DNA from: an uncultured Candidatus Rokubacteria bacterium
GTDB lineage: Bacteria > Methylomirabilota > Methylomirabilia > Rokubacteriales > DASRDR01
Length of the DNA stretch: 64,000 bases
Direction: 5' to 3'
NCBI GenBank assembly: GCA_963805625.1
Contig: CAWDVE010000010.1
Span: forward strand, 512,001 to 576,000
Shown here: piece by piece, positions 10,427-25,574 of the stretch
Layout of the letters: every line of letters starts with the position of its first letter
Numbering within the stretch: the first letter of the stretch is position 1
Position numbers and translations under genes: made by a program
Notes under the pieces: generated by a model
Databases searched by the model: none
What the model saw: only the letters and a program-made list of their open reading frames with translations
Told to the model about the DNA's origin: nothing

Positions 10427-10515
10427 TGGTGCCGGGGGAGGGAGTCGAACCCTCACACGTCTTGCGACGTAGCGGATTTTAAGTCCGCCGCGTCTCCCAG
10501 TTTCGCCACCCCGGC
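10427..10515 (-). tRNA. tRNA-Leu(TAA)
   Basis: GCCGGGG acceptor stem, anticodon arm GCGGA-CTTAAAA-TCCGC, long variable arm, GTTCGACTC, CCA end. Confidence 0.97.
10477..10515. repeat. att repeat (5' half of the intact tRNA-Leu)
   Basis: TTTTAAGTCCGCCGCGTCTCCCAGTTTCGCCACCCCGGC, identical to 23472-23510. Confidence 0.95.
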
Positions 10516-10547: not shown

Positions 10548-11081
10548 TCACGCCCCCGGCGGACCACTGTGCCCAGAATTGTGCCCAGTACGCTCGGCCA
10601 CTGTGCCCAGGACTGTGTCCTGCGGCGGCGGGGGTACGCTCTCGATCTTCTGAATCAAGCTGTGCACGAAGGCGGCCTGGTCGTTGAACCACTCCGCCGT
10701 CATGTCGGCGATAGTCTCGACAGGGAACCGTCCGTCGTTGTCCTTCTCCCCGAACTTGACCAGCCGGAGCGGGAAGCCCGTGGTCCCCGTCGGGAAAACC
10801 CGTCCATGTGCAAAGGTGTCACGTAAGGCACCCACCCGATGCGGGTCGAACCGATTCGCCTGAGGAACGAGGCCATTGTAGCGTTCTATCGTTTTCCACA
10901 AGCCCCTGTAGTCAGCGAGCGCGTCGTAGGGGACGCGGTCACCCACTTGCAGGCTTCCCCAGTGCCAGTGTGCGCCGGGGCTCGGCTCGATGCGTTCCAT
11001 GGCGGTGCGCAGCGTGGTTTCCAAGAGCTGCAGAAGGGCCACTAGTCGTCCAAGCGCCTGGGTATGCTCGTTCGTGTCCAC
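10548..11081 (-). CDS. Hypothetical protein with HEPN-like R-x4-H motif
   Basis: GTG start just after integrase stop; N-terminal helix ALGRLVALLQLLE; LRDTFAHG motif. Confidence 0.6.
   Translation of the reverse strand: MDTNEHTQALGRLVALLQLLETTLRTAMERIEPSPGAHWHWGSLQVGDRVPYDALADYRGLWKTIERYNGLVPQANRFDPHRVGALRDTFAHGRVFPTGTTGFPLRLVKFGEKDNDGRFPVETIADMTAEWFNDQAAFVHSLIQKIESVPPPPQDTVLGTVAERTGHNSGHSGPPGA
10568..10622. repeat. Integrase arm-type-like direct repeats (TGTGCCCAG, pairs at 12-bp period)
   Basis: Copies at 10568, 10580, 10602 and degenerate 10614; 19 bp (10569-10587) identical to 23319-23337. Confidence 0.75.
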
Positions 11082-11083
11082 AG

Positions 11084-12127
11084 CTATCCGCCGCTGGACA
11101 TCATGTGGGCACGGGCTAGCTTTTCCGCGCCCTCCCGCAGCATCGCCTCGTCCACAATCGCGTACCGGCGGTAGATCGCCTCCGTCTTGTGGCCGACCAT
11201 CTTCATCGCCGTCGAGCGGGGGACGCCGGCCCGCTCCAGGTTGCGCACCGCGGTCCGGCGAAGGTCGTGGGGAATCCGCCCCGGCACGCCGGCGGCCGTG
11301 CACGCGAGCGACCAGGCTTTGCGGAAGTCCCGGATCGGCTTGCCCCGGCGATGGAACACCCAGGGGATGATCCGCTTCCGGGCGCGCTGCCAGCGGTCCG
11401 TTTCGGTGCGCTGCGCGTCCAGGACCTCGTGCAACTCGGGCGTCAGGATGAACGTCCGCCCCTCCTGGTTCTTCGTGGTGCCCGGCTCCAGGCGGATCGT
11501 TCCGGCCTTGACATCGACCTGGCGCCACTGCAGCGGCTGCAGTTCACTCGGCACGCGCCACCCGGTGATGTAGGCGGCGGTCACGAGGCCGCGCAGCTCC
11601 GGCGCGAGCCGGCTCCGGACGGCCTCAAACTGCGGTCGGTCGAAGAAGCCCTGCCGGACGTTGTCCTCCCGGAGCAGGCGAATGCGGGGCGCCCGGTGGA
11701 GCCGCTCGGCATCGAGCGCGAGCGAATAGGCGCGCTTGAGCGCGGCCAACTCGCGGTTGATCGTGCCGTTCGCGGCGCCGGCGGCCTGCCGCGTGGTCGC
11801 GTAGGCCGTGAGATCTGCGCTCGTGACGTGGACGGCGCGCCGCGGGCCGAAAGCCGGCCGCAGATGCCCGAGGCTGATGTCCAGGCGGTCGAGCGAACGC
11901 CGACCGTTCGCCTGGTAGTCGGCCTTGAGGGTATCGAGCAGGTGGTCGACGGTGACCTTGTCGACGCGCGGGATCACGGGCCGGCCCTCGATCGCGGCGC
12001 CCTCTCGGACCTTCAGGAGCCGCTTCGCGTCCCCCTCCTTCGTCGACCCGCTCGACTCGCGGATGATCCGGTCGTGAGCGCGGTACTTGAGCCACCACAC
12101 GTCCCCCCGTCGATACACGCTGCCCAT
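11084..12127 (-). CDS. int: Tyrosine recombinase / phage integrase
   Basis: Catalytic set TGWR, TKN, HDLRRT, VGHKT, RRY; N-terminal arm-binding-like region GSVYRRGDVWWLKY. Confidence 0.95.
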   Translation of the reverse strand: MGSVYRRGDVWWLKYRAHDRIIRESSGSTKEGDAKRLLKVREGAAIEGRPVIPRVDKVTVDHLLDTLKADYQANGRRSLDRLDISLGHLRPAFGPRRAVHVTSADLTAYATTRQAAGAANGTINRELAALKRAYSLALDAERLHRAPRIRLLREDNVRQGFFDRPQFEAVRSRLAPELRGLVTAAYITGWRVPSELQPLQWRQVDVKAGTIRLEPGTTKNQEGRTFILTPELHEVLDAQRTETDRWQRARKRIIPWVFHRRGKPIRDFRKAWSLACTAAGVPGRIPHDLRRTAVRNLERAGVPRSTAMKMVGHKTEAIYRRYAIVDEAMLREGAEKLARAHMMSSGG

Positions 12128-12157: not shown

Positions 12158-12865
12158 CTATTCTGCGGTCGCGTAACGTATCCCGCCCAGGAGGACTCCG
12201 CCATGACCGAGGCGCCCGAGATCACGAGCCCCTACGAGCCGCCCTGTATCGAGCGGGTCCTGACCCCGGAGGACCTGGAGCGCGAAGTCCTGTACGCGGG
12301 GTTCGATGCGGTCTCCGCCGACCAGAACTAGTCTCACCGCTCCAGCGCCGCCATGCGCGGCGCGAGGTCCCGCCCCGCCCGCTCCCCTTTGGCCTAGGGT
12401 GCGCGGGACCCAGACGGTCGCGCGATTCGAAAGAGGGTTGACGTGCTGGGACGAGTAGACAAACGCCCCCGTCGCGACCGTGATCGTGATCACCTCCGGC
12501 GACTCCCCCGGCGCCCGCTCACTCGGGAGGAGTATGAGACCTATTCCCATCGGGTCGGTTTCGATGCGCCAGAGGCTCGCGGGGACATCGATCTGTTGCA
12601 GCGTTCCGCTATAGCGAGTCACCCGGGCGCTCTTCGGCGACCCGGGCAGCACGTCGATCCGCCACTGGCTGGTGTTCCTCTGGCGTTCTAGCGGGCCGCT
12701 AACCTTCTCGGCCTTCTTCCCGCTCCCGAGTTCGGTGTGGTAATAGCCGACGGCCGCCGACTCGTTCGATTGACACAGCAACGCCGTGGCCTCGGTCTCG
12801 GCCGCGACCGGCGAGCCGACTGCCAGCACGACCACGACGACAAGGAGCCATGTCACCGAAGTCAT
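12158..12865 (-). CDS. Secreted hypothetical protein (3' end probably aberrant)
   Basis: Signal peptide (VAA-ETE); protein-like to about 12410, then low-quality read-through across the peptide gene. Confidence 0.55.
   Translation of the reverse strand: MTSVTWLLVVVVVLAVGSPVAAETEATALLCQSNESAAVGYYHTELGSGKKAEKVSGPLERQRNTSQWRIDVLPGSPKSARVTRYSGTLQQIDVPASLWRIETDPMGIGLILLPSERAPGESPEVITITVATGAFVYSSQHVNPLSNRATVWVPRTLGQRGAGGAGPRAAHGGAGAVRLVLVGGDRIEPRVQDFALQVLRGQDPLDTGRLVGARDLGRLGHGGVLLGGIRYATAE
12203..12331 (+). CDS. 42-aa peptide resembling a RiPP precursor (YxxP leader)
   Basis: AGGAGGA RBS; MTEAPEITSPYEPPCIERVLTPEDLEREVLYAGFDAVSADQN. Confidence 0.55.
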   Translation: MTEAPEITSPYEPPCIERVLTPEDLEREVLYAGFDAVSADQN

Positions 12866-12937
12866 GTCGATTACCCCCAGGTCTTATCCGGCCAGGCCCA
12901 CGGCTCTGTTCTCGCACCGCGCGGGGGCACCTCTCCG

Positions 12938-13228
12938 TTACGTCGCCGTCGTCCTTCGGACCCGCTGCCAGAGGACCACGCCCGCGAGCGCGACGAGGAG
13001 CAGCATCGCGCTACTCGCCTCCGGCACCGCCGTGGTCTCGGTCGTGAGGCTCGGGGCTGCGGTGATCGTCACGCTCGCGCCCGTCGTTTCCGTCGTGTCC
13101 GTCGGCAGCGTGAGGCACTCGGGGCAGTTCGTCCAGCCATGCTCGGTCAGCCGGTAGGTGTGGCCAGAGGAGCTCGTATACCACTCGCCGACGTGATACC
13201 AGCCGAGGCTCGTCCAATCGATGTACAT
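12938..13228 (-). CDS. Small protein with PEP-CTERM-like sorting tail
   Basis: Thr-rich linker, VPEASS, hydrophobic helix, basic tail WQRVRR. Confidence 0.7.
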   Translation of the reverse strand: MYIDWTSLGWYHVGEWYTSSSGHTYRLTEHGWTNCPECLTLPTDTTETTGASVTITAAPSLTTETTAVPEASSAMLLLVALAGVVLWQRVRRTTAT

Positions 13229-13231
13229 GGC

Positions 13232-13597
13232 TCACTCCAACGGCGTCGTCAGCGGCACGCCGAGGCACGCGGGACACTGGATATAGCCGGCGGCCCGGTT
13301 CCCCGGGAGCGCCCAATACGCCTCCACGGGTGGGATGCGGAAATGCCAGACGCAATCAATCAGGGCGACAAACCACTCGACACAGCACGGCGGACACCCC
13401 TCGGCGAGGCCACACTGCCGGATCGGCTCAGACCCGGGGTCGTTGCGCGCCGGACTCCTCGCCGCGAGGACGATCAGGTCGGCCACGGTGATCAGGCGAG
13501 GCCCGCGATCCTCGACCCGCCGGCGGCGGGGGCGGCGTGGCCACGGCCCCAGCATCGGCGGGCACTCGAAGAGCCGGAGTTGCGCGGTGTCCGTCAT
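13232..13597 (-). CDS. Cys-rich hypothetical protein
   Basis: ATGA overlap with XRE gene; CPPCC, CPAC. Confidence 0.5.
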   Translation of the reverse strand: MTDTAQLRLFECPPMLGPWPRRPRRRRVEDRGPRLITVADLIVLAARSPARNDPGSEPIRQCGLAEGCPPCCVEWFVALIDCVWHFRIPPVEAYWALPGNRAAGYIQCPACLGVPLTTPLE

Positions 13598-13800
13598 TCC
13601 AGCAGCGCCGTCACCGGCACGCCGAGGGCCTTCGCGAGACGCTGGAGCATCCCCACCGTGGGGTCCGAGCGCCCCTCCTCGAGCTTCGTGATGTACTCCC
13701 GACTCACGCCGGCCGCCTTCGCCAGCGCGTAGCGGCTCAGTCCCTTGGCCTTCCGCGTCTTTTTGAGCGTCATGCCGATCTGCCTCGGTGTCGGGCTCAT
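13594..13800 (-). CDS. XRE-family HTH transcriptional regulator
   Basis: LKKTRKAKGLSRYALAKAAGVSREYITKLEEGRSDPT...LAKALGV. Confidence 0.92.
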   Translation of the reverse strand: MSPTPRQIGMTLKKTRKAKGLSRYALAKAAGVSREYITKLEEGRSDPTVGMLQRLAKALGVPVTALLE

Positions 13801-13804
13801 GTTA

Positions 13805-13820
13805 GTCCACTATAGTTGAC
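13805..13820. promoter_or_regulatory. Near-palindromic operator candidate upstream of the XRE gene
   Basis: GTCCACTATAGTTGAC (one mismatched pair) containing -10-like TATAGT 8 bp before the ATG. Confidence 0.55.
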
Positions 13821-14056
13821 GATGCAAGAGGGCTCTCGGTGGTCGCGCGGGGCCGCGGCTCGGGGGGCTCGATCCATCCCGCCCGACCCTACCGCGAGCC
13901 GGTCCGGGGCGCCAGCCGGGGGCCTCGACGGAACCCCGACAGCGCGATACGCTGGGGCCCTCGGGACACGCTCGGAACGGCCGGGGCGGCAGTGTGACGC
14001 CGCGGTATCCGCTCCCCGTGCTGTACGAGCCAATCCGGCCGACAGCGAGGTGTCCC

Positions 14057-14305
14057 ATGACGACACCATTTCCCTCCCCCACAGCTCCCGATCCCCTCCG
14101 GTTCTCGATTCTCGGCACGATCGTCACGTGGGATTCGTTCGGGCGCTGGCTCCGCATCGGGGAGCGCAACTTCTGGGTGGCCCCGAGCGTGGCGGTGGCG
14201 GGCCTGGGTCCCGGCGTCAGGGTCACCGCCAGCGGGCACCAGGAGGACCTGACCGCCCGGTGGATCGTGACCAACGTGAAGCTCGCCGGAGACATCCCAT
14301 GGTGA
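14057..14305 (+). CDS. Small beta-rich hypothetical protein (DUF5666/OB-fold-like)
   Basis: GAGG RBS; ILGTI...LRIG...L.PG.RVTASG pattern. Confidence 0.5.
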   Translation: MTTPFPSPTAPDPLRFSILGTIVTWDSFGRWLRIGERNFWVAPSVAVAGLGPGVRVTASGHQEDLTARWIVTNVKLAGDIPW

Positions 14306-14353
14306 CCGCGTCAGCGCCCCGGTGAACCGCGACCGGCCGGATCCCGCCGCGGC

Positions 14354-14848
14354 TCATGCCGAGTCCGTCGGAGGGTCCGGGAGGGCCGGGGCCGTCGGCC
14401 ACGCGGAAGGCGCGAAAGCGAGGACCTTGACCCCGTCGGCCCGCTCCGTGATGTTCACCACTTCGAGCACCACCGCCGGGGCCGCCGCGAGCCGGGCGAG
14501 GAAGTCCACGGAGACTCGCACCCGGTCACCTGGGCGGATGGCCGACTCCACCAGCCGGTCGAATTGGTCCGTCGGCACGTTCGCCACGCGGAGGGCGGTC
14601 CGCTTCTGGTCGCGGGACATCCCAGCATCGCGGGCCGCGCTGGTACGTGTGCCAACGGGGGACCGACCCCCCGTTGCCGAATTGCCACGGTCTCCACCGC
14701 GCGCCGGAGCGATCGACCGGAGCAGCGCCCCGCACCGCGCGATGGCCCGCGCCTGGATACGCTCGGCCATCTGGCGCAGCGGGAGTGGGGCGCCAATACC
14801 CCAATTCTGCCCGGCGGGCAGAATGACCCACCCCGCCCGGGGGGTCAT
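14354..14848 (-). CDS. Phage-type hypothetical protein
   Basis: ATGA-coupled to upstream gene; AARDAGMSRDQKRTALRVANVP HTH-like segment. Confidence 0.5.
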   Translation of the reverse strand: MTPRAGWVILPAGQNWGIGAPLPLRQMAERIQARAIARCGALLRSIAPARGGDRGNSATGGRSPVGTRTSAARDAGMSRDQKRTALRVANVPTDQFDRLVESAIRPGDRVRVSVDFLARLAAAPAVVLEVVNITERADGVKVLAFAPSAWPTAPALPDPPTDSA

Positions 14849-15231
14849 GCCGGGACCCCGTGTTCGAGGGCCGCCGGACGTGCGGACCCGTCAGAACTCG
14901 CGTCCTCACGGGGGTCCTGCAGGCTCCGCGGCCGCCTGGGGGCGAGGCGACCCGGGGCGGCCGCCCGTTTCAGCCCCCAGCGGAACCGGCCCACGGGAAT
15001 GGTGTAGAACCGGCCCGAGCAGGCCCCCCCGGGGAACCGGGTCTCCCGCGCCGCCGGAATGCCGAGCCGCGCGAGCTTGCGCCACGTGACCGGCGAGGCC
15101 GACCAGAGGTGGACCTGGTCGTCCGCGCGGTCCCAGCGGATCGTGGTTTCTTGCTCGGCGCGGGTGGCGCGATACGCCGCCGAGGCCGCGGCGGGTTGAC
15201 GACGACGCGGACGCAGGGATAGAGTCGGCAT
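14845..15231 (-). CDS. Phage-type hypothetical protein
   Basis: GGAG RBS; EQETTIRWD motif, protein-like composition. Confidence 0.55.
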   Translation of the reverse strand: MPTLSLRPRRRQPAAASAAYRATRAEQETTIRWDRADDQVHLWSASPVTWRKLARLGIPAARETRFPGGACSGRFYTIPVGRFRWGLKRAAAPGRLAPRRPRSLQDPREDASSDGSARPAALEHGVPA

Positions 15232-15253
15232 GGTCTCCAGGCGCTCCTGTTCG

Positions 15254-15288
15254 ACGGCCCCGCCGGAGGCTGAATCCGGCGGGGCCGT
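15254..15288. terminator. Strong hairpin after the virion-gene module
   Basis: 14-bp perfect stem ACGGCCCCGCCGGA / TCCGGCGGGGCCGT, 7-nt loop; no clear U tract. Confidence 0.6.
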
Positions 15289-15301
15289 GTTCGTGGTGGC
15301 C

Positions 15302-16150
15302 CTAGTAGCGGAAGTCCCCGCGTCCCGAATACGTGCTGGCGCCGACGTTCCCGTACCGCGAGTAGACGAACGGGCTGGCGGCTGCGCTGGCCCCGCTCAA
15401 CAGCGTCGAGCCGACCCCGAGATAGCCCGCCGTCCGCACCCCACCCGCCTGAAATCCATAAAGATTCGCCTGCGAGAGATCCGCGGCGGATCGGGAGAGT
15501 CCGCCGAATCGCGCGAACGCCGCTTCCCCTATGAGCGATCCCGCCCGGAGTGCGCCTTCACTGCGCGCATACGCTGAGCCGGCCCGCATGCCGGCCACGT
15601 CCACCGCCACTTCGTAATCGTGCACCGCGAGCTCCTGCCCGACGGTGTCCGCATTTTCCATGAGCACCATCAGGGGCGACCCCGTGGTATCGACACCCGC
15701 CTTCCCGATCGCGGCGCGCACCTCGCTTTGCGTCCGGTCGTAGTTGCGACGAATGGCCGCCTCTTGGATCTTCCCGGCCGCTTCCCGCGCGAGGGCCTGT
15801 TGCTCGCTGAGGGTGGCCTGCGCCTCAGCCAACGACAGCGCGCCCATGGCTTGTCGCTCGAGGAGTTTGCCTTGCAGCTCGGCCATTCGGGCTTGATAGG
15901 CCGCTTGCTGACGCGCGAGTGCCGCGTTGTACTCCAGGGCCGCCGCTTGCTGCTGGGAGGCCTGGTAGGTCCCGTAGGCCGAGACGCCCGCCGCGACCAC
16001 GGCCGCCACCGCCGCAATGGCCGCAAAGGCCGCCGGCGAGAAGTGGCCCACCTCGGCCTCGACTCGCCAGTTGGGATCGACGGCCTCGCCGCAGAGTCGG
16101 CTGAGACGGGCGTCGAAGGACTCCGGACATCCGGGACGGGCTCGACTCAT
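15302..16150 (-). CDS. Podovirus-type internal virion / DNA ejection (pilot) protein
   Basis: GAGGAGG RBS; hydrophobic AAVAAVVAAGVSAYG, QQQAAALEYNA coiled coil, AGVDTTGSPL motif, Gly-rich hydrophobic C-terminus. Confidence 0.7.
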   Translation of the reverse strand: MSRARPGCPESFDARLSRLCGEAVDPNWRVEAEVGHFSPAAFAAIAAVAAVVAAGVSAYGTYQASQQQAAALEYNAALARQQAAYQARMAELQGKLLERQAMGALSLAEAQATLSEQQALAREAAGKIQEAAIRRNYDRTQSEVRAAIGKAGVDTTGSPLMVLMENADTVGQELAVHDYEVAVDVAGMRAGSAYARSEGALRAGSLIGEAAFARFGGLSRSAADLSQANLYGFQAGGVRTAGYLGVGSTLLSGASAAASPFVYSRYGNVGASTYSGRGDFRY

Positions 16151-16160
16151 CGGGGCCTCC

Positions 16161-16478
16161 TCACTCGTCCAGCAGGGTCGTCTTGCGGCGACGCGGGCGG
16201 ACGAGGAGTCCCCGCGTCTTGTCGGTCCCGGGCAGGGCGCCGGCCTTGTCGCCCGGCGGAATCGGTCGGGTGGCCGGTGGCACCCGCGGCCCCGGGCCGG
16301 CCACGGGCACGTACGTCACGGTGGGACCCGTGCGCGGCCGCACCGAGAGCACCTGGAACCCGCCCTGACCCGGCTCGCCCGTCTTGACCTGCGGCCCCGC
16401 GGTCGCCGTCGTCACCGAATTTTTCGGCGGGGTGTAGTAGGGCACCGGCGTCGGCCGCGGGTAACTCGGGTGGCCCAT
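16161..16478 (-). CDS. Small Pro-rich virion-associated-like protein
   Basis: Translationally coupled; basic C-terminus RRRKTTLL. Confidence 0.5.
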   Translation of the reverse strand: MGHPSYPRPTPVPYYTPPKNSVTTATAGPQVKTGEPGQGGFQVLSVRPRTGPTVTYVPVAGPGPRVPPATRPIPPGDKAGALPGTDKTRGLLVRPRRRKTTLLDE

Positions 16479-17203
16479 CAGCGGGCTCGCCGGCCATGCT
16501 GCCGCGCCTGCATATACTCCTCGCGGAACCGGGGCTCGTACTTCGCGATCAACTGGGACGCCTCGGGATCGTGCCCGAGCAACGCGCCGAGTCGCGCCAG
16601 TTCCATGATGACCTGCGGGTGATTGCCCGCGCGCGTCCGGTCAAACTCCTCGCGCAACTCGCCCGGACGGCCCCCGCGGCGCTGATCCAACACCTCGAGC
16701 GCCGCCTTCGCTTGCGCCATCATCCGCGGATAGTGCGCCCCCCAGTGGCTTTGCAAGCGCTCCGCCGCCACCTCGCGACTCGGGATCGATCGCCCCTCGG
16801 CCACCGTAGGCTTCGGCTGACTGGCGTCCAGGATCCAGTTGACGACCGGGTTCGCCTCGGACTCTGACAGGTTGAACGCGCGACACGCGGCCGTCGCGAT
16901 CGAGCGATCCACCGCCGTGAACGTCTCCTCCGTCCGGCCCGGCGGCATCGCGATCTCGTAGTCCAGGTTCGGCGCGACCGTCGCCCCGCTCGCGGCGGCC
17001 GCCGTCCCGTGGACGGTCTCGTACAAGAGTGCCATTTCGCGCAGCGCCGTCGGGTCCCCCCGATGAAACGGATGCGCGAGATCCCCGCGAATCTCCGCAA
17101 TCCGGACCTCCGCCGCGGCGCGATCGGGCGGGCCACTCGGCGCCGGCTCGGGACTGGGGGCGGGACTCGGACTCGGGACGGTCGGGTCGAGGGGCTCAGG
17201 CAT
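16478..17203 (-). CDS. Capsid scaffolding-like protein
   Basis: LQSHWGAHY..MMAQAKAAL and AGNHPQVIMELARLG motifs; RIAEIRGDLAHPFH motif. Confidence 0.65.
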   Translation of the reverse strand: MPEPLDPTVPSPSPAPSPEPAPSGPPDRAAAEVRIAEIRGDLAHPFHRGDPTALREMALLYETVHGTAAAASGATVAPNLDYEIAMPPGRTEETFTAVDRSIATAACRAFNLSESEANPVVNWILDASQPKPTVAEGRSIPSREVAAERLQSHWGAHYPRMMAQAKAALEVLDQRRGGRPGELREEFDRTRAGNHPQVIMELARLGALLGHDPEASQLIAKYEPRFREEYMQARQHGRRAR

Positions 17204-17945
17204 CCGGGTCTCCTTCCGGGTCGCCGCCGAGGGGCCGGCGCGCCGCCGGGCCGGTCGGGGGGGCCGGGGGCACGAGCTCGACGCCCGCCCCCCGCACCGT
17301 CATCGCATAGTCAATGCGCGCGCACAGCTCATCCAGCGCCCGGAGATCGTTCTGCACTTGCACCGGGACCGGCTCCGATTCCTCCACCGCCGTCTTGATC
17401 GCGTTCACCCGGCAGCCGTGCGGCATGCCGCCCGTCACACACTGATGCACGTCGCGGTGCGTGAGCGCCGCAATCTGCGACGGCACCCGCTCGAGGAGCG
17501 TGATCGTCGACTGATCCTTCGCGTCCCGCGCGCGCACCGCGCTGGCCAGCCGCGCCTGCAGCGACCGACAGTCTCGAACCAAATGCGAGCCGCCGCCCAA
17601 GATCAACTCCCACTTCAGGACCTCCCCCTGGATCTCCAGCCGCTGCAGCCGGTCCAGCCGGGACGTCACCGCCGGCACCAGCGGCCGCAACCGCGCCAAA
17701 CACGCGGCCGCGCGCTCCACGTAGGGCGCGAGACTGTCGCGGAGCGCCTGCCCGGCGGCGTCGGCCGCCTGCTCGGGCGCCCGCGCCCGCGCTTCGAGCC
17801 GGGCCAACGCATCCTCGGACGGCGGCGCCTCGGGCTCGATCCTGACCTTCGGCGGTCGGCCCCGCGGGCGCTTCGACGGCTCGGGCGGGGGGATCGTGTC
17901 GCGCGCGGCCTGTTGGACTTCGGTGCGGACCTTCGTCATCGGCAT
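17196..17945 (-). CDS. Hypothetical helical protein with AT-hook-like motif
   Basis: GAGGAGG RBS; KRPRGRPPK. Confidence 0.6.
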   Translation of the reverse strand: MPMTKVRTEVQQAARDTIPPPEPSKRPRGRPPKVRIEPEAPPSEDALARLEARARAPEQAADAAGQALRDSLAPYVERAAACLARLRPLVPAVTSRLDRLQRLEIQGEVLKWELILGGGSHLVRDCRSLQARLASAVRARDAKDQSTITLLERVPSQIAALTHRDVHQCVTGGMPHGCRVNAIKTAVEESEPVPVQVQNDLRALDELCARIDYAMTVRGAGVELVPPAPPTGPAARRPLGGDPEGDPDA

Positions 17946-17955
17946 CGGGACCTCC

Positions 17956-18216
17956 TCACAGCCCGTAGGCGGTGCGGACGTTCGCCGCGCTATAGCTCTT
18001 CCACGACAGCTCGCCGGCGAGCCCGCCCTTGGCATTCGATTCTTCCGTCGCCACCGTATTCGGCGCATCCGCTGGGTCGGGGTCGTGCACCAAAAACACC
18101 CCAGCGGTCGCGTCACTCGTCGCCGTCGGCACGGCCAAAATCACGCTGAGGCGCCGCCCACTGCTCATCAGCTGGCGGCGAATGTCCAGGAGGTCGGCAT
18201 AGGTCACCGCAGCCAT
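17956..18216 (-). CDS. Hypothetical protein
   Basis: AAAGGAG RBS, coupled to upstream ORF. Confidence 0.6.
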   Translation of the reverse strand: MAAVTYADLLDIRRQLMSSGRRLSVILAVPTATSDATAGVFLVHDPDPADAPNTVATEESNAKGGLAGELSWKSYSAANVRTAYGL

Positions 18217-18515
18217 CAGTTCGCTCCTTTCGGATCGGAGAGGAGGATCGCGCCCTCGCCCAACAACGTCGGACGGCGCGCGGGCGGGGGCGAGATCGGG
18301 ATCGGGGGTGGGGCACTCCCCGGGGCGGGCGCGGGGCGTCGGCGCCGTCGCCGCCGGGACGGGACGCCCGTGGCGACATACACCGCCTCCTCGAGGCCGT
18401 CCTGCACGTGCACGCCCGCCCGGCGGTACGTCATGCCGTGCCAGGCCACGACGGCGCCCCCGGCGCCCGGCAGGCGGGTGAGCACGCGCGTCAGGGACTC
18501 GTCGTAGAGCACCAT
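18216..18515 (-). CDS. Hypothetical protein
   Basis: Tightly packed in operon; Arg/Pro-rich C-terminal half. Confidence 0.5.
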   Translation of the reverse strand: MVLYDESLTRVLTRLPGAGGAVVAWHGMTYRRAGVHVQDGLEEAVYVATGVPSRRRRRRRPAPAPGSAPPPIPISPPPARRPTLLGEGAILLSDPKGAN

Positions 18516-18516
18516 G

Positions 18517-18942
18517 TCAGGCCGACTGCAGCTCCGCCGCCAGCGCCTGCACCGCCTTGTCGCGCGACGTCGCCAACTTCTGCTGCAGCCGCCCCACCTG
18601 CCCCTCCAGCGTCGCCACCTCGGCCTGCCGCTGCTGGATCCGCTGCTCGAGCCCGGCGAGCTCCGCCTCCCGGGTCCCCACGCGCTCCGCGTGCGCCGCC
18701 CGGCTCGCCTCCCACTCCCGCTCGACCTGCCGCATCTCGTTCGCCTTCGCCGTCGTCCACGCCGGCACCTGCGCCGCCAGCCGGGTCACCTGCGCGCTGA
18801 GGGTGTGACGCTGCTCGCGCATCTGCTCCGCCACCGTGGCCTCCGCCTGCGCCCCCTGCTGGAGCGCCGTCAGCGCGGCGTCGATCGCGGCGAACTCCGT
18901 GAACTTCGATTCCAGGTCAACTCGGTCTGTCATTGGTCGCAC
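18517..18942 (-). CDS. Coiled-coil hypothetical protein
   Basis: Heptad-rich A/E/Q/R sequence; AGGAG RBS. Confidence 0.65.
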   Translation of the reverse strand: MRPMTDRVDLESKFTEFAAIDAALTALQQGAQAEATVAEQMREQRHTLSAQVTRLAAQVPAWTTAKANEMRQVEREWEASRAAHAERVGTREAELAGLEQRIQQRQAEVATLEGQVGRLQQKLATSRDKAVQALAAELQSA

Positions 18943-19218
18943 TCCTGTTCAGGGTGAAGGGTGCACGGCGCTTGGGGACATGGGGCGATGGGGACGGTCC
19001 CGGACGGGGTCATGACGGCCCGTTCGGGCCGACAGTTTCGGGGGGGGTGGGGTGGCAGGGTGTTTCGCTGCGTGCCCGGCGCCCCCCGCTCCCCGGCGGC
19101 CGGCGATGGACGGGGGCTCATGGGCCGAGCCAGTAGTCCAAGAGGATCTTGACCCACACGCCGAGCGCGATCGCCCAGGCGGCTCGCGTCAACCACCGGC
19201 CATCCAAGCGGGGGCGGA

Positions 19219-20448
19219 TCATCGCGGCGCCTCCCGGTGCGCCAACACGAATTGCTCGAGGTCGTCGACCAGGATGTGAATGAGCTTCTCGCGCGAGGTG
19301 CCCTGCCCGCCCGGAAGCCGCACCGCCGGCAGCAGGCCGCGCGACACGAAGTCACGGACCTTCCCGTACCCCACGCCGAGGTAGACGCCGGCCTCCTTGA
19401 GCGTGTAGAGCCGCTTCAGGCGCGCGAGGGAGAGGGTCGCGGCGTCGAAGCTCACCCCCAGGAGGGCGCGGAGGGTCTTCTGGTTGGTGATCCGGTTCGT
19501 CCGGATCAGGGTGGCGGCCTGGTCGTCCAGGGCGGCGGCCTGGGTCGCGTCCGCCTGGCGGCCCTCGGCCTCGAGGTCGGCCCGGGTGCGCGGGTCGGTT
19601 TCGATGACACAGGAGCGCCGGGGCCGGCCGTACTCGTCGTCCTCCCCGAGCCGCACCCGCACCCGTCGGAGTCGGAGGGGAGCCGGCTTGGCGTCGTCCC
19701 GGACCTTCAGGGTCGTCAGGAGCAAGTCGGCGATCCCGAGTTCCCCATTGTCGGCCGTGACCTCGAGGTAGAACACGCCATCGGAGTTGCCCCGGAAGGC
19801 CGAGGAGCCCCGTTCGCGCTTCTTTTTCGTCTCCCCGTCTTGCCACCCGGCATGATGGGCGAGCACCGCCCCGGCGTCGGGCACCACGGTGAGCAATCGG
19901 CGGACGACGCGGAGATACGCGGCGACATCCTCGGAGCGATCCTCGGAGCCGACCATCGACGCCCGGAGCGTGTCGATCAGGAGCAGCACCACGGGCGGCC
20001 CCCCGGCCGTCGCGAGCTCGGCGACGAGGGTGCGGAGGCTGTCGCGGAGGGCGCACTCCCCCGCCGAGGGGGTTTCCTGCCCCTCGCGGTCGACCCGGGG
20101 CGAGATCGGCTCGCCGGCGCGGAGCACATAGAGGTGCCGCACGTCCCGGGACGTGACCTGGAGGGCGGCGAGCCGGAGCCCGAGGGCATCCCCCTCGAAG
20201 CTGACATACGCCACCGTGCCGGCCTGCGCGGGGCGGCCATGCCACTCCTTCTCCCCGCCCGCCACGGCCGCGGCTAGGTCGAGCAAGACGAACGTCTTTC
20301 CGGCCCCGGACTCGGAGACCAGCACACTGACCCCGCGCTGCCACGCGAACTCGGCCACGAGACTGATCGGCGGGGGGTCGGTGAGGAGGTCGAGGGCGGG
20401 CCGGAAGCGGGCGACGTCGATCGAGTCCGTCACGGCGTCGAGGTTCAC
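19219..20448 (-). CDS. RepA/AAA_25-type (SF4-like) helicase with C-terminal excisionase-like HTH
   Basis: Walker A SESGAGKT, Walker B LLLIDT, AHHAG, RGSSAFRGNSD; tail LYTLKEAGVYLGV...LPAVRL. Confidence 0.85.
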   Translation of the reverse strand: MNLDAVTDSIDVARFRPALDLLTDPPPISLVAEFAWQRGVSVLVSESGAGKTFVLLDLAAAVAGGEKEWHGRPAQAGTVAYVSFEGDALGLRLAALQVTSRDVRHLYVLRAGEPISPRVDREGQETPSAGECALRDSLRTLVAELATAGGPPVVLLLIDTLRASMVGSEDRSEDVAAYLRVVRRLLTVVPDAGAVLAHHAGWQDGETKKKRERGSSAFRGNSDGVFYLEVTADNGELGIADLLLTTLKVRDDAKPAPLRLRRVRVRLGEDDEYGRPRRSCVIETDPRTRADLEAEGRQADATQAAALDDQAATLIRTNRITNQKTLRALLGVSFDAATLSLARLKRLYTLKEAGVYLGVGYGKVRDFVSRGLLPAVRLPGGQGTSREKLIHILVDDLEQFVLAHREAPR

Positions 20449-21311
20449 CGGACGGACTCCCGGGCGGCCCGGAGATCCCGCCAGTCGCGCCCGCGACAAT
20501 GGCCGTGATGACACACGAAGTCGAACGCCCCGCTGGCGCGGATGAGGATCGCGGCCCCGCCGGGGCCGGTCGTATGGACGTCGGCCCAGGGGCAGCGGGC
20601 CAATTCGAGCAGGTAGCCGTCCGCCCAGCGCTTGAGGGGGCCGACGGTACGGAGCCCCCAGGCCTGGGCCTTGGCCAGCAACGTGCCGCCGAGATCATCC
20701 GGGGGCGGCCTTGACGGGCCGGCATACGACGATCGGCCAGGCGGGGGAGTCAAGAGCCGGACCACCTGATCGAGGATCGCTTGCCGGGGCTGCACCGCCG
20801 AGGGCGTCCCGGCCCACGTGTGCCCGGTCACGACCATGACCTTCGCCCGGTCGTAGAGCTCGAGGTGCGCTTCGGGATGCGTGATGGGATGGGGGAGCGT
20901 GCCGTGCACGAAGAGATGTAACCCCGTGCCGCTCACGCTGATCTCGGTCCAGGACTGCACGTGCGCCACCAGCCGCGCGGCCCCGGGCAGGAGCTGTGCC
21001 CCGTCGAGCACCCCGTCCAGGTCGAAGCAGGTGATCTGCGCCTCAGCGGTGAGCACCGCGCCGATCCCGATCAATGGGCCGATGACCGGATTCGGATCGC
21101 GGTGGGGACCTGTCAGGAGCGCGTAGGCGTCCACGGCCTCCCCGAACGTGCCCCACGTCTCGGGGTCCGTGCTCGAGGCCCGTCGGGTCGGATCGCTGAT
21201 TCGATAGGGGACCTTCTGAGGCTTGCCCGCCCGCGGCTCGGCCCGCGAGAGCACCCAGGGTTGGGCCCGCAGGACGGCGGGGATCGCGTCGGGGATCAGC
21301 TCACGCCACAC
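20445..21311 (-). CDS. Primase-polymerase (AEP, NrS-1-like N-terminal domain) with Zn-binding-like C-terminus
   Basis: KVPY, ASSTDPETWGTF, CFDLD, TEISVSGTGLH, ELYD; CPW..VH and CHHGHC. Confidence 0.85.
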   Translation of the reverse strand: MWRELIPDAIPAVLRAQPWVLSRAEPRAGKPQKVPYRISDPTRRASSTDPETWGTFGEAVDAYALLTGPHRDPNPVIGPLIGIGAVLTAEAQITCFDLDGVLDGAQLLPGAARLVAHVQSWTEISVSGTGLHLFVHGTLPHPITHPEAHLELYDRAKVMVVTGHTWAGTPSAVQPRQAILDQVVRLLTPPPGRSSYAGPSRPPPDDLGGTLLAKAQAWGLRTVGPLKRWADGYLLELARCPWADVHTTGPGGAAILIRASGAFDFVCHHGHCRGRDWRDLRAARESVR

Positions 21312-21359
21312 GGGCGACCTCGGGGAAGAGGGTCGAGAGCAGGAGGTTCATGGCGGGGG

Positions 21360-21692
21360 TCATCGCCGGCCCGCCTCGTCGTCGAAGGCCGCCGGCGTGA
21401 CCCAGACGTCCCCGCGGGGCCGGGCCTCGGCCCACGCCAGGGCACAGGGCTCGCACAGCTTCACCGGCTCGAGCGGCGAGGATCGGCCCCAGATGATCGC
21501 GGTGCCGCAGTCGGCGCACGCGCCCGTCTGCATGGTGGGGATGAGGGTCCGCGCCTCGGCCTGACGGGCGGGCGACTCGTGTGGGAGCTGCGCCATCGCG
21601 GCGTCCCACTCCGCACGTCGGGCACAGACGATCACAGTGGGCCGCCGCGTGGCGATGTGTTCGACGGTCCGCCGCCATTCGTCCCGGGTCAC
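21360..21692 (-). CDS. Hypothetical protein with two CxxC motifs
   Basis: GTGA coupling; CADC, CEPC. Confidence 0.55.
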   Translation of the reverse strand: MTRDEWRRTVEHIATRRPTVIVCARRAEWDAAMAQLPHESPARQAEARTLIPTMQTGACADCGTAIIWGRSSPLEPVKLCEPCALAWAEARPRGDVWVTPAAFDDEAGRR

Positions 21693-22063
21693 CCGGCCAT
21701 CTCCGCGAACTCGTCCGCCTCCGCAATGAGCGCGCGGAGTTTCTTGGGCGAATGGCCGCCGGTGTTCTGGAGGAGCCAGACGAGGTAGTGGCTGAGCGGT
21801 TGCCACCACCAGTGCGTCCACCGCGGATCGCGCCCGAGGCAGTCGTTCATCTTGCAGAGCACGACGATCGGCGAGAAGCCGTCCTCGGTGATGGTGTCCG
21901 GGTGCCAGACGATGCCGGCGATCTTGACGTCGGTGATCCACTCGCCACACCCGGCGCAGCGGAGGCGCGGATAGTTGTGGCCGCGGCGGTGCCGGACGCC
22001 GAAACTCGGCGTGGTCGGCCCTCCGGGTCCGTAGAGGTCGTCGGACGAACGCGGGGTCGTCAC
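21689..22063 (-). CDS. Hypothetical protein (CxxC)
   Basis: GTGA coupling; CAGC. Confidence 0.55.
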   Translation of the reverse strand: MTTPRSSDDLYGPGGPTTPSFGVRHRRGHNYPRLRCAGCGEWITDVKIAGIVWHPDTITEDGFSPIVVLCKMNDCLGRDPRWTHWWWQPLSHYLVWLLQNTGGHSPKKLRALIAEADEFAEMAG

Positions 22064-22272
22064 GCCGCCCTCCGGCGCTGCCCGTCAGCATTCTGCCCGC
22101 CGGGCAGATTGGGTCGGGCGGCCTGCTCGAGGGCGAGGACGGCCGCATCGAGCCGGAGTGAGCGTCGTCGAGTGAAGGCCCCGTCGAGGACCCGCTCGGC
22201 CCGCGCGAGCGCGAACCCGAGGAGCAGCTGCGCCGGCACGGGGGGTAGCCGGCGGGCCACGAGTGCGGACAT
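22060..22272 (-). CDS. Hypothetical protein
   Basis: Fills operon slot, coupled to downstream ORF. Confidence 0.45.
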   Translation of the reverse strand: MSALVARRLPPVPAQLLLGFALARAERVLDGAFTRRRSLRLDAAVLALEQAARPNLPGGQNADGQRRRAA

Positions 22273-22293
22273 GGCGCGCGGGTCCGGCTCCGG

Positions 22294-22497
22294 CTACTCG
22301 CGCCCCTTGGCGCGGGCGAGGAACGCCAGAAGGCTCGCCTGTGGCACCCGCGGCATGCGGGGTCCGATGTGGATGGTCTCCAGCTCCCCCCGGCTGATGA
22401 GCCGATCGAGAGTCGCGTCCGAGACCTTGAGGAGCCTCATGACCTCGGCGCGTCGGTAGAGCTGCTCGGCGCGCCGCTCGTCGACCTCTATGAGCAT
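22294..22497 (-). CDS. Excisionase / AlpA-like HTH_17 DNA-binding protein
   Basis: GGAGG RBS; LYRRAEVMRLLKVSDATLDRLISRGELETIHIG. Confidence 0.88.
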   Translation of the reverse strand: MLIEVDERRAEQLYRRAEVMRLLKVSDATLDRLISRGELETIHIGPRMPRVPQASLLAFLARAKGRE

Positions 22498-22563
22498 CCG
22501 GGCCTCCCGAGGCCACTTGGGCCTGCGAGGGGCACGTTACTGGAGGGAGACGCGCCGGTCTAA

Positions 22564-22595
22564 CGAGTAACCTTTTGGGGCGAAAAGGTTACTCG
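22564..22595. promoter_or_regulatory. Perfect 13-bp inverted repeat upstream of excisionase operon
   Basis: CGAGTAACCTTTT-ggggcg-AAAAGGTTACTCG. Confidence 0.7.
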
Positions 22596-22601
22596 GCCGA
22601 A

Positions 22602-23192
22602 TCAAGGCGGCGGGGGCACCTCGATGAGTCCGACGTCCCGCAACCATTCCGATTGCCACTCATAGTCCGTGACGCCCGCCGCTGTGAGCCGCTCACGGGT
22701 GTGGCGGAGGATGCGGTTGAGCGGCTTTCCGGGCGTGGGTCGGCGGGTCTGGCGGGAGGCATCGATCCAGGTCGCGTGTGTCATCCACGACGCCAGACGG
22801 GTCGTGAGGTCTCGCGCCTCCTCGTCCTCGGCCAGGAGCCACAACTCCCGGAGGAGCGGAGGGAGATCACGCCGTAGCTGGCGGACGCGGATCTCCAGGT
22901 CCTGGTAGATCATGGCGCGCTGGCTTCTCACCTGCTCCTGGTAGTGCTCGACCAAGCCCGCACACAGCGCCGCGCACAGGCGGTCCTCGTCGATCCCTTG
23001 GACCCGGGCGGCCTCGAGGTGGTCCTCACACTCGCGTTCTCGATCAGGGTGAAACGGCAGGAGGGCCCTGAGCGCCCGCGCGCGATCCGCTCGCGTCTTC
23101 CACCGGCCTTGGAGGGACAGGACCGAGGCGGGATCGGGGAGTTGCGCCTGGGGATATCGCGCCTGCGAGCGGCGGACTCGCTTCTTCGCCAT
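22602..23192 (-). CDS. Hypothetical protein (first gene inside the element)
   Basis: GAGGGGAG RBS, 196-aa helical ORF. Confidence 0.6.
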   Translation of the reverse strand: MAKKRVRRSQARYPQAQLPDPASVLSLQGRWKTRADRARALRALLPFHPDRERECEDHLEAARVQGIDEDRLCAALCAGLVEHYQEQVRSQRAMIYQDLEIRVRQLRRDLPPLLRELWLLAEDEEARDLTTRLASWMTHATWIDASRQTRRPTPGKPLNRILRHTRERLTAAGVTDYEWQSEWLRDVGLIEVPPPP

Positions 23193-23318
23193 GGCTCCCC
23201 CTCGTGGAGCGCCTCAAGGGACGGGGCCGGTGGGCGAGGGCGGTGAGGAGCCGCCCCGTCGACGCCAGTAGCGAGCTGGCGCCTACGCCCACACGAGTCA
23301 GTCTACGCGATCACCGCC

Positions 23319-23375
23319 GTGCCCAGAATTGTGCCCACGGCGACGTCACGACCCGACACAATCCAGCACAATCCG
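23319..23375. repeat. att arm: arm-type pair plus 10-bp-period repeats
   Basis: GTGCCCAGAATTGTGCCCA then CACGACCCG/CACAATCCA/CACAATCCG at 23347/23357/23367. Confidence 0.7.
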
Positions 23376-23471
23376 ACGAATTGGAGCAGGCACAGAGACC
23401 GAGCGGGCCGATCGCGAATCGCCCGTCAGGATGCGGGGATCGTGACGCGCGACGCGTGCCGACGGGGTCGC

Positions 23472-23510
23472 TTTTAAGTCCGCCGCGTCTCCCAGTTTCG
23501 CCACCCCGGC
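23472..23510 (-). repeat. att repeat: 5' half of tRNA-Leu(TAA) ending at the anticodon loop
   Basis: 39 bp identical to 10477-10515; no T arm follows. Confidence 0.95.
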
Positions 23511-23726
23511 TGGTCGACGAGCGAGAAGTTACGATACACTGCGAGGTTCCCGCGGCGCCACTTTGCCCGGACCTTTGCCCACGATCACGCACTGGGGGGC
23601 TAGTCCATGGCCTGTCGCTGGACCGCTCGTCTCCTTCAGCGCTGATACACGATCCCTGTGAGCACGCCCTGGTTCAGGTCCGAGTCGACCCCATGCTGGT
23701 CCTTCTCGAGGAGGCTCACGCTCCGA

Positions 23727-23993
23727 TCATGCGGAGCCCCCGGAGGCGTTCGTTTGATCCACCAGCTGCCCAATCAGCCCGCGGCGCTCCGCGCAGTCCG
23801 CCCGATCCGGGCACGCGAACACGAGGGTGCAGTCCTCCACGTGCAGCATGAGTGTCGGCGCGCCCGCGGTCGCAGCGACGAGTTGGCGCAGTCGCGCGAT
23901 CCACGTTTGGTCAGGGTGTTCGGAGAGCATCAAGCGCATGTTCTCGGTGTCCGGAACGCGAACCGACTCACCCACGATACGAATCTGTTGCAT
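23727..23993 (-). CDS. Hypothetical protein
   Basis: AGGAGG RBS, 88 aa. Confidence 0.45.
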   Translation of the reverse strand: MQQIRIVGESVRVPDTENMRLMLSEHPDQTWIARLRQLVAATAGAPTLMLHVEDCTLVFACPDRADCAERRGLIGQLVDQTNASGGSA

Positions 23994-24403
23994 CGCGCCC
24001 CTCCTGCCTCCGACCGACGTGCCATACTGGCGGTTCGGGTGCCGGTGACGGTGATCGGTCGAACGCTCCCTGGCCGTGAGACCTACGCGAACTGTCTAGC
24101 GAAGTCCTCGGTCCGGATGACCGGGACACGTATGCGGTGATGTCCAGCTGCACGCGCTTCACGCATCGAGCCGACGCCCCAACGAATGTCGTCAGGGCGA
24201 TCTGCTGCCGCTCTCCTGGATCGAAGGACCACCCACTCTGGCAACATCCGAGCTGACCCATGGAATTCAACGCCGCGACGTGTGTCAGCGCGAGGACGAA
24301 GCTGCTCCCTCGCCTTCGCCTCGTGCCGCGGGGCCAATATTAGGCCGCTACCCGTGAACGACACAGAATTGCCCAGAGGCGGCGATCCCTCAGCGGCTTC
24401 CGG

Positions 24404-24646
24404 CTATCGTGGAGCGGCTTCCTGGAGCGCGAGCAGGGCGGTCGACAGCTCGGCGGCCGTCCAGTCTAGGTCCTCGATAGGGACCCGCAGGGTTGCCCGT
24501 ATCGAGATGGGCCCCGTGCGGGCGAGGCGCTCGAGCATCTCCTGGGCATCCCGGACCGCATTGAAGGCCCGGCGCAGGCGATCCACGGCCATGGCGTTCG
24601 GAGAGAGTGGCAGCGGCGCTGTCCCCGGGCGAACGAAGCGGGGCAC
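24404..24646 (-). CDS. Hypothetical protein
   Basis: GAGG RBS, amphipathic helical pattern. Confidence 0.4.
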   Translation of the reverse strand: MPRFVRPGTAPLPLSPNAMAVDRLRRAFNAVRDAQEMLERLARTGPISIRATLRVPIEDLDWTAAELSTALLALQEAAPR

Positions 24647-25007
24647 GTCAGCGACCGCCTCGGCGGTTGCGATTCAGGATCACGGCGGCGGGGTACTTGA
24701 TTCGTAACGTCGTCTTCTTTGCCATGGCCGAGGATACCATGGGCAGAGTGTTCATGCAGGGCCGCTTCAGAACGCCAAATGGTTGCCACTGCGGTGAGCC
24801 AGGGAGTCGCGCTGCCACGAGACGCGGTCAGTCGCTCGTGGGTGCACGCCGACGAGGCCCGCGCCGCCTGCGGGCTTGCCCGCTCCCGCCGTCCGGGATC
24901 GACTGGCCGCGAGCCGGCTCGTTCCTCATGAACCGATCGGTCGGGGCGGACGCCATGCCGGCGGCGTGTTTGGGGTCGAGAGTGGCGCAGGCCGACCCGT
25001 CCGGCGG

Positions 25008-25352: not shown

Positions 25353-25415
25353 GACACTCCTCCTTCCCAGCAGCGCCATCGCCGGCACGCCGAGTCGTTT
25401 GGCAGCTTCCGGAGC

Positions 25416-25574
25416 CTAGCGCCCCTTCTGTGCGATGACCACGAAGAGGGCCAGGGTCGCCGTCTGGCCCGCCGAAAGGACGTTGTGGATGGCATAGCCA
25501 TCCTGGTCGAGCTGGTTCAGTGCATTCTCGAGCGTCTCGGTGTTGCACTTGATCACCTTCCATTGATGCGCCAT
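25416..25574 (-). CDS. Small DUF4177-like protein
   Basis: QWKVI....LENALNQL..DGY pattern. Confidence 0.45.
   Translation of the reverse strand: MAHQWKVIKCNTETLENALNQLDQDGYAIHNVLSAGQTATLALFVVIAQKGR

Follow-up and report, generated by a model that had tools for sequence, protein, structure and literature searches.

The window analysed here is a stretch of 64,000 nucleotides from an uncultured Candidatus Rokubacteria bacterium (assembly GCA_963805625.1, contig CAWDVE010000010.1, positions 512,001 to 576,000), and it contains an integrated element of 12,995 bp (~13 kb) bounded by exact 39-bp direct repeats. An earlier description of this locus, made from the letters alone (hereafter the sequence-only reading), had proposed a new type of satellite that combined a replication module with a podovirus scaffold and ejection protein. 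All of the open reading frames (ORFs) it recorded were indeed located on the minus strand in a single run, from an excisionase-like HTH_17 gene through to the ejection-type gene; features described below are on this strand unless stated otherwise. Between 18933 and 15302 the run was compact, with intergenic gaps of -8 to +10 nt. Shine-Dalgarno-like sites (AGGAG or GGAG) preceded five of the seven genes here and the other two were coupled to the preceding stop, which upheld the claim of intact ribosome binding and translational coupling. The strong hairpin said to close the run was confirmed as a 14-bp stem (15240..15305; z = -4.1, 0 of 200 shuffles equally stable); however, it had no U-tract and was not among the terminator-scan predictions. 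In scans of PHROGs, Pfam and NCBIfam, no ORF of the element had a significant match to a capsid, portal, terminase, tail or lysis family. When it was compared by tblastn (E ≤ 0.05) with 25 query proteins (18 helper-type phage proteins and seven from related contigs), four had matches, i.e., the scaffold, a protein of 86 amino acids (aa), the ejection protein and the integrase (30% identity). Portal, coat, the 158-aa protein encoded after the coat gene, tail tubes, large ejection proteins and TerL were without a match, in agreement with the absences noted earlier.

The sequence-only reading had recommended a search for a helper podophage with scaffold and ejection homology, and such a phage, G251 (40,411 bp), was retrieved with the ejection-protein alignment. 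As judged from its genes, G251 is a complete temperate podophage; it is regarded as complete because it has direct terminal repeats. It encodes TerL, portal, scaffold, coat, the 158-aa protein, a homologue of the 86-aa protein (52%) and two tail tubular proteins, followed by the ejection homologue, two large genes (the product of one, at 1,830 aa, matches an internal-virion family) and an integrase. The genes that it shares with the window element by homology are those for the scaffold, the 86-aa protein and the ejection protein; the two integrases were 30% identical, and the size of the element was 0.32 of that of G251. No resident helper prophage was found in the genome of the window itself, where there was no match to the coat profile; the TerL on contig C11 belongs to another remnant. 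On this comparison, G251 may be taken as representative of the helper type, and not as an identified helper of this host. The C11 remnant (L023, G000:C11:56066-59754) lies by tRNA-Glu/Gln and contains a TerS-like ORF, TerL, a prohead protease and a coiled-coil gene, and the ORFs inspected included none recognisable as encoding a capsid.

The scaffold gene (16478..17203) encodes 241 aa and matched phrog_3742 (E = 4e-5) and phrog_458 (E = 6e-4). The ejection-type protein for its part matched phrog_418, and both proteins belong to virion families, as had been anticipated. Matches to the scaffold family were found in 126 GenBank phage records, including phages of Pelagibacter, Vibrio, Ralstonia and Bordetella, and several of the best of these were annotated as a capsid assembly protein or a putative protease. 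BLASTP aligned residues 21–68 of the window scaffold with residues 235–279 of the G251 scaffold, i.e., its C-terminal helical end (58% over 48 aa, E = 2e-12), while residues 143–206 aligned with the phage scaffold core at 162–219 (28%, E = 3e-4). Profiles were then cut from an alignment of four phage scaffolds and run on 13 sequences (10 proteins and three raw frames from a related locus, L066). The C-terminal profile matched residues 30–68 of the window scaffold (independent E-value, iE = 1.6e-14), as well as the N-terminal part of the P0003 and P0002 scaffolds and of the scaffold of L002, a second element in the same genome (2e-16 to 5e-10). The core profile matched residues 143–207 of the window scaffold, and in the other scaffolds with an N-terminal match to the C-terminal profile it matched farther downstream, except in L002 (iE = 0.79). 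The scaffold of another locus, L063, kept the phage order, and the phage N-terminal profile produced nothing significant across the 13 sequences. On the evidence of these alignments, the window scaffold is domain-permuted, the phage C-terminal end having moved ahead of the core, a feature that the sequence-only reading had overlooked. By eye, each end of the L065 and L066 scaffolds carried a helical piece of this sort, and a two-ended scaffold of this kind would be the intermediate in a route of duplication and loss.

The relocated N-terminal piece was also the best-kept part of the scaffold (58%, against 28% for the core), which is expected if its fit to a helper coat must persist. According to the account in PMC5644958, the coat is bound by a C-terminal helix in the scaffold of phage 80alpha and in CpmB of Staphylococcus aureus pathogenicity island 1 (SaPI1), and by a helix-loop-helix in P22. 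Complex prediction for scaffold residues 20–72 with the coat alignment scored 0.49, compared with 0.00 for the best control; the runs agreed in at least 92% of contacts, and the pLDDT (predicted local distance difference test) of the partner was at least 79. The passing mark in this procedure was reached by 116 of 157 solved pairs and by 2 of 215 mismatched pairs. Passing scores of 0.60 or lower were confined to 18 of the solved pairs and both mismatches, and therefore 0.49 weakly suggests that residues 20–72 would bind the helper coat protein. Coat binding by the scaffold mimic is considered fairly probable.

The late module recurs beyond the window. L002 (contig C13, 1–12.4 kb) has another replicase and an integrase of 43% identity, yet repeats the order of the window, i.e., hydrophobic ORF, coiled-coil, 99-aa, 86-aa, 249-aa, scaffold and basic gene. 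Identities were 38% for the 99-aa homologue, 56% for the 86-aa protein, 36% for the 249-aa protein and 28% for the scaffold; its basic gene ended after 46 codons, and DNA similarity to the window was lost after 101 nt. In L002 the replicase, a 174-aa gene and an HTH_17 gene were all separate. The 174-aa gene was homologous (z = 17.5) to the gene directly upstream of a terminase-like ORF in L066; it was unnamed by the family libraries and is called TerS-like by position only. The search for syntenic elements that had been advised earlier also identified two metagenome contigs, L027 and L029, so that the coiled-coil, 86-aa, 249-aa-type and scaffold genes stood in the same order in four elements. 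These two were the only ones with satellite order among eight metagenome loci containing the 86-aa gene, the other six being phage-type head modules, and L027 had no TerS-like gene from prim-pol to the coiled-coil gene. Because the late module recurs in L002 and on both metagenome contigs, the element is, by comparison of gene content, not a simple deletion derivative of a prophage; the sequence-only reading had named such an origin as fatal to its proposal, and gene order and the missing remnants also speak against it.

Among 251 genomes of the phylum (including that of the window), the scaffold profile matched six and the 249-aa profile two. Of the scaffold-profile matches, L065, L066 and L068 were integrated elements of small size whose scaffold was more distantly related, L063 was a remnant and L069 a contig end. 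L065 and L073, the latter a match to the 249-aa profile, had a TerL of the helper's PHROG family. L065 (G075:C76), L066 (G078:C53) and L073 (G036:C6) were small related elements with their own TerL, and may represent a branch of this family that is equipped with a terminase. L065 looked intact, having a scaffold, a helical protein and several small ORFs, and neither coat nor portal was recognised in a scan of 10 ORFs. In the genome of the window there was also a 3.4-kb copy (L003, G000:C10:1334900-1338400) that matched a section of the C13 element at 98.6% identity, with an altered start to its scaffold gene; this is either a recent duplication or a strain variant. Elsewhere on C10 (G000:C10:1957232-1959825), a primase/helicase-like ORF preceded a gene for 214 aa that was homologous (32%) to the TerS-like gene, with no scaffold match close by. 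On contigs C13 and C25, tRNA-Val(CAC) and the integrase remnant upstream were the same, and the islands downstream were different; with assembly contamination of 6.26%, the sister element on C13 possibly originates from a co-binned strain. No satellite relative was found in IMG/VR with a single scaffold query or a pair of 86-aa queries; with the scaffold alignment, eight weak loci were recovered there, on contigs of 5–47 kb. A species-genome scan for satellite relatives produced a single weak match, which was unrelated.

Four ORFs (18517–18933, 18216–18515, 17956–18216 and 17196–17945) had been listed as having no known function, and none had an informative family match. Upstream of them, a hydrophobic ORF of 34 aa (19118..19222) had been overlooked; it was kept in L002 (z = 6.5, 0 of 300 shuffles; 72% DNA identity over 90 bp). 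The coiled-coil protein (18517..18933, 138 aa) was found at the same position in all four elements with weak sequence support (z = 1.9, -0.5 and 3.1 against L002, L027 and L029 respectively), and the 99-aa ORF (18216..18515) was common to L002 only (38% over 97 aa, E = 2e-5). The 249-aa protein (17196..17945) has a basic RGRPPK motif at the N-terminus and a long helical bundle (model pLDDT 79). Its homologues in L002, L027 and L029 were clear (z = 11–31) and its matches were confined to such elements, with none in helper-type loci or in plasmids. The model had no Foldseek match at E ≤ 0.001, and its best Z (9.3) was no higher than helical bundles give generically; the matches listed did not include Sid, to which the protein may nonetheless be similar. 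A partnership between the 249-aa protein and the scaffold mimic is guesswork. The basic, proline-rich protein (16161..16478, 105 aa) was 76% identical to that of L002 over 42 aa. It was considered as a homologue of the G251 pre-portal gene, and this was rejected, as the N-termini were alike without being significantly so (z = 2.0, 26 of 500 shuffles); the L002 copy compared with the same small phage gene gave z = 3.9 (1 of 500 shuffles).

The 86-aa protein (17956..18216) belongs to the podophage head module, with 51–66% identity to seven phage-type copies, and its phage position is after the coat gene and a gene of 158–162 aa. It is likely to be a small virion or assembly protein. The model had no fold match in BFVD, and an Atlas match to PF27114, poorly recognised, is no more than a lead. 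The protein was also observed as the C-terminal domain of proteins of 266–313 aa (P0045, P0048, P0051 and P0053), which suggests a portable attachment module. The satellite copy at L027:10001-10270 was 94% identical to a protein of the 40,074-bp contig P0008; if that contig is a phage, this identity points to recent capture from a helper. In a tree including unlabelled rows, some of which may be satellites, monophyly of the satellite copies was rejected (approximately unbiased test, p = 0.0002), whereas with the 11 labelled rows only it was not (p = 0.19).

The last gene of the run (15302..16150) encodes an internal virion (ejection-type) protein (phrog_418, E = 4.7e-15), which was 61% identical to that of G251, the DNA being 71% identical over 373 bp. 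It had 26 relatives, no match in GenBank phages and no solved relative by sequence, and its profile matched 2 of the 251 phylum genomes, the second being a short copy that lies within the tail module of a phage. In G251, the homologue is the first and smallest of three genes in the ejection module. The description of this gene as the element's own DNA-delivery protein was overstated, since tblastn found no counterpart of the helper's larger ejection partners, and because these are absent a single small ejection protein cannot deliver DNA alone.

The element begins with a 196-aa ORF (22602..23192) without significant match in the family scans, followed by the excisionase-like HTH_17 protein (22294..22497; PF12728 E = 3.4e-7, phrog_66 E = 1.5e-6) and a 70-aa ORF identified by sequence only (22060..22272). 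The small zinc-finger ORFs reported earlier retained their cysteine motifs without gaining a family: a 124-aa ORF (21689..22063) had no family match, and a 110-aa ORF with CxxC...CxxC, a possible zinc finger (21360..21692), reached phrog_54 at E = 0.063 only. A prim-pol (20445..21311; phrog_13901 E = 6.5e-27) and an AAA_25 helicase (19219..20448; PF13481 E = 5e-22) were both recovered as described. The earlier reading had overlooked that the helicase frame continues into a C-terminal HTH_17 domain (residues 369–424 of 431; PF12728 E = 3e-6) without its own start codon, which is a separate gene in L002. Helicase profiles ended 50–80 positions early (phrog_2850 at 415/465, phrog_906 at 790/872), and the fusion is possibly a deletion junction on this evidence; among the 251 phylum genomes, a close helicase relative (E ≤ 1e-15) occurred in one, the genome itself. 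Downstream of the hairpin, a block of small accessory ORFs (12158..15231, one of them at 13994–14305 on the plus strand) was characterised by family scans, and included an XRE regulator (HTH_3, 13594–13800), a small PEP-CTERM-like cargo protein (12938–13228) and a signal-peptide ORF (12158–12865). L002 encodes a protein whose C-terminal tail resembles the PEP-CTERM-like protein by eye, and an ATP-binding cassette (ABC) substrate-binding-type gene. The tyrosine integrase was complete, at 347 aa (11084..12127; phrog_1 E = 4.3e-42, PF00589 E = 1.7e-16), and the att repeats were exact over 39 bp, both as previously claimed.

The upstream att repeat (23472..23510) corresponds to the 5' 39 nt of tRNA-Leu(TAA) and breaks off within the anticodon loop, and the second (10477–10515) is the same part of an intact tRNA-Leu(TAA) gene (10427..10515). 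Because the intact gene is located downstream of the element, its 5' half would be supplied by the element. The att duplication (10477–10515, 23472–23510) thus concerns the 5' half of tRNA-Leu and not its 3' end, and the sequence upstream of the restored gene must also come from the element. Duplication of the tRNA 5' half is the rarer arrangement for integrated elements. Likely integrase arm-type sites were found as a repeat inside the upstream end (GTGGGCACAATTCTGGGCAC, 23313..23337) and close to the downstream att (10563..10621), and 23319–23437 was 83% identical to the beginning of L027. The surrounding tRNA Gly-Cys-Leu cluster (10427–27353) is interrupted by three inserts; on contigs of other organisms, tRNA-Cys and tRNA-Leu are spaced by ~25 nt. 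A 2.2-kb stretch (23511–25691), in which arm-like repeats (23522–23581) were 70% identical to 10528–10587, may be a remnant of an earlier element, and there was an Rfam match to int-alpA RNA at 26549–26616. No circle or empty-site junction was seen in four public contig sets over 8000–26000, where a depth of ~1–6 and patchy cover make this uninformative either way.

The interpretation preferred here, with a probability of roughly 0.55, is that the element is a capsid-less integrated island, likely a satellite of temperate short-tailed phages, which likely redirects head assembly through its rearranged scaffold. We infer each functional step as follows. Infection by a helper, or its induction, would lead to excision and replication of the element. 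The N-terminal helical piece of the scaffold would bind the inner face of the helper coat in competition with the helper scaffold, in the manner of SaPI CpmB and Rcm, and together with the 249-aa and coiled-coil proteins would produce smaller heads sized for 13 kb. The 86-aa, basic and ejection-type proteins would be accessories that supplement or substitute minor particle components, and the helper terminase would package the element DNA. These parts are not equally secure. Membership of a satellite family is highly probable, and the window copy has about an even chance of still being mobile; production of smaller heads falls slightly short of that. The fullest version, i.e., an undescribed family of podophage satellites, here in a little-studied phylum of sediment and soil, in which a permuted internal scaffold, derived by duplication and relocation of the coat-binding end, resizes heads and in which the element's own minor virion and ejection proteins are mixed in, is offered tentatively.

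Several observations weigh against this interpretation. The phage C-terminal profile was weak on the L029 scaffold (iE = 0.0017) and unconvincing on that of L027 (iE = 0.11). Coat binding by the C-terminal end of a scaffold is argued by analogy with P22 and 80alpha, and no solved relative of the scaffold family was identified by sequence. L002 has no ejection gene, which therefore looks accessory, and the L027 and L029 contigs stop inside the scaffold gene. No host link for G251 emerged, there being no CRISPR array in a simple repeat scan and no att or tRNA match, and the 251 phylum genomes contained no convincing helper coat gene (two weak matches, E = 3e-4 and 6e-4). The TerS-like gene of L002 had no match in the window element, where no packaging-redirection gene was recognised; its place is occupied by the helicase-HTH_17 fusion, and the window copy may therefore have lost such a gene. 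Finally, three 13-kb copies would fill a full-size head equally well.

The last point leads to a satellite that does not change head size, whose scaffold mimic mainly poisons or slows helper head assembly and which is carried in normal heads as a concatemer of three copies. Coat binding is compatible with this also, and 3 × 12,995 bp amounts to 39 kb, compared with 40.4 kb for G251. PICMIs (phage-inducible chromosomal minimalist islands) and virion-encapsidated integrative mobile elements (VEIMEs) are described as packaged in concatemers without capsid remodelling (PMC10803314, PMC9618062). However, those elements have no remodelling genes, whereas the window element retains a full-length scaffold derivative, core included, besides other genes of the particle module, and this exceeds the needs of a mere poison. 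Known satellites are given as approximately one-third of the helper genome in size, a pattern of remodelling satellites (PMC10803314), and a satellite without size change is thought unlikely. Only a little less likely is an impaired family member, in which the second HTH gene became joined in frame to the helicase through a deletion that also took out the TerS-like gene, so that packaging is poor or does not occur. The separate replicase, TerS-like and HTH_17 genes of L002, the early end of the helicase profiles by 50–80 positions, the HTH_17 domain without a start and the TerL of L065 and L073 are all consistent with such a loss. Yet no damage was seen in the other frames, the att sites or the coupling, L027 is likewise without a TerS-like gene in the corresponding interval (though possibly reduced itself), and the E. 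coli element EcCIMP1, as reported, is mobilised at low rate without terminase genes (PMC11773190).

Decay of a temperate podophage that has lost most of its virion genes would explain the 71% DNA identity of the ejection gene to G251, which is itself temperate, and perfect att sites can outlast internal deletions. Nevertheless, the gene orders are not colinear: the phage has scaffold, coat, 158-aa, 86-aa, tail and ejection genes in turn, where the element has 86-aa, 249-aa, scaffold, basic and ejection genes. The permuted scaffold is present in several independent copies, remnants of the large genes were absent by the 25 tblastn queries, and prim-pol, helicase and the 249-aa gene had no match in G251, with integrases merely 30% identical. 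Decay is largely refuted by the recurring module and is thought very improbable.

The workings of internal scaffold mimicry are established for the islands of staphylococci and the phages they depend on; no podophage case was found in the literature searched. A mimic with an N-terminally relocated helper-matching end, together with a complete matching phage, offers a way to probe how scaffold architecture sets head size, and draws attention to the part that binds the coat in a scaffold family (the HTVC010P/phiVC8 type) that is very common and for which no solved relative was found. Such elements would account for part of the many incomplete 'Type C' elements resembling phage-inducible chromosomal islands (PICIs) that current detection tools discard, and the permuted scaffold and 249-aa protein are marker genes for finding them.

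Among known systems, the window element would work most like SaPI CpmB and Rcm, by analogy. In both cases a satellite gene past the replication module carries helper-scaffold sequence, as described for the islands in PMC5644958 and PMC12409344, and each element is about one-third of its helper genome; the trait in common is a terminal segment shared with a helper-type scaffold. Rcm (SaPIpT1028/phi7206) is presented as a large multi-helical mimic of a large helper scaffold (PMC12409344). In CpmB the shared piece stays C-terminal (PMC5644958), whereas in the window scaffold it is N-terminal, ahead of the core. The helper type here is a podophage, and no CpmA or TerS was recognised in the element. 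No relation to CpmB or Rcm turned up in library scans of the window proteins, which were not compared with them directly.

The PICI model of SatelliteFinder (PMC10085698) is matched in broad plan, i.e., integrase with att repeats, HTH regulators (HTH_17 and XRE HTH_3), a primase-replicase (here the prim-pol/AAA_25 replication module) and a late module, in 13 kb. However, strict membership fails on TerS, for which there was no match in PHROG, Pfam or NCBIfam scans, and there was no AlpA family match; the scaffold derivative is of another family than the morphogenesis components described. The element has virion-module genes that PICIs, as outlined there, typically lack, and is at most Type C-like (PMC10085698). 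PICMIs are described as ~6 kb in size, beside fis and without remodelling genes (PMC10803314), so that an element of 13 kb at tRNA-Leu with a scaffold homologue is not a PICMI. VEIMEs also differ in having no remodelling genes by the published account (PMC9618062), though both rely on helper particles. Nor is it a capsid-forming PICI (cf-PICI), since these have their own capsid and packaging genes and the window element is without major capsid, portal and terminase. Capsid redirection, as proposed here, is the strategy of P4 (through Sid) and of PICI-like elements (PLEs, through TcaP). Sid and TcaP are external scaffolds without known homology to the helper scaffold. The scans of the element found no family match to the P4 Sid/Psu/delta operon or alpha primase, and the model of the 249-aa protein matched generic bundles only.

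The podophages of phrog_3742/458 (Pelagibacter HTVC010P, Alteromonas ZP6, Vibrio phiVC8, and the Ralstonia and Bordetella phages), with G251, form the family from which the genes for the scaffold, the 86-aa protein and the ejection protein derive; unlike the window element, they are complete phages in which the scaffold core precedes the C-terminal end. EcCIMP1 of E. coli MP1 is similarly tRNA-integrated, without capsid or terminase, and has DNA-transfer (ejection) genes related to its helper, vB_EcoP_Kapi1, past the primase; mobilisation by Kapi1 was demonstrated experimentally (PMC11773190). It is described with DUF2824 and a row of three larger genes, among them an annotated ejection protein and a transglycosylase, and its published account reports no capsid morphogenesis gene (PMC11773190), whereas the window element has a single small ejection gene and a scaffold mimic. 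Homology between the late modules was not detected (0 of 6 profiles at E < 0.05; best E = 0.069). No description of a podophage satellite with a scaffold mimic was found in the literature searched, from which subscription journals were mostly absent. The sequence-only reading therefore stands as far as the satellite and its podophage-derived scaffold and ejection-type genes are concerned. The view that the pairing of the two defines a new type is not supported as it was put, since the ejection gene is not in L002 and both the ejection-type genes of EcCIMP1 and the mimicry by CpmB and Rcm are already published; the distinctive trait is the permuted scaffold.

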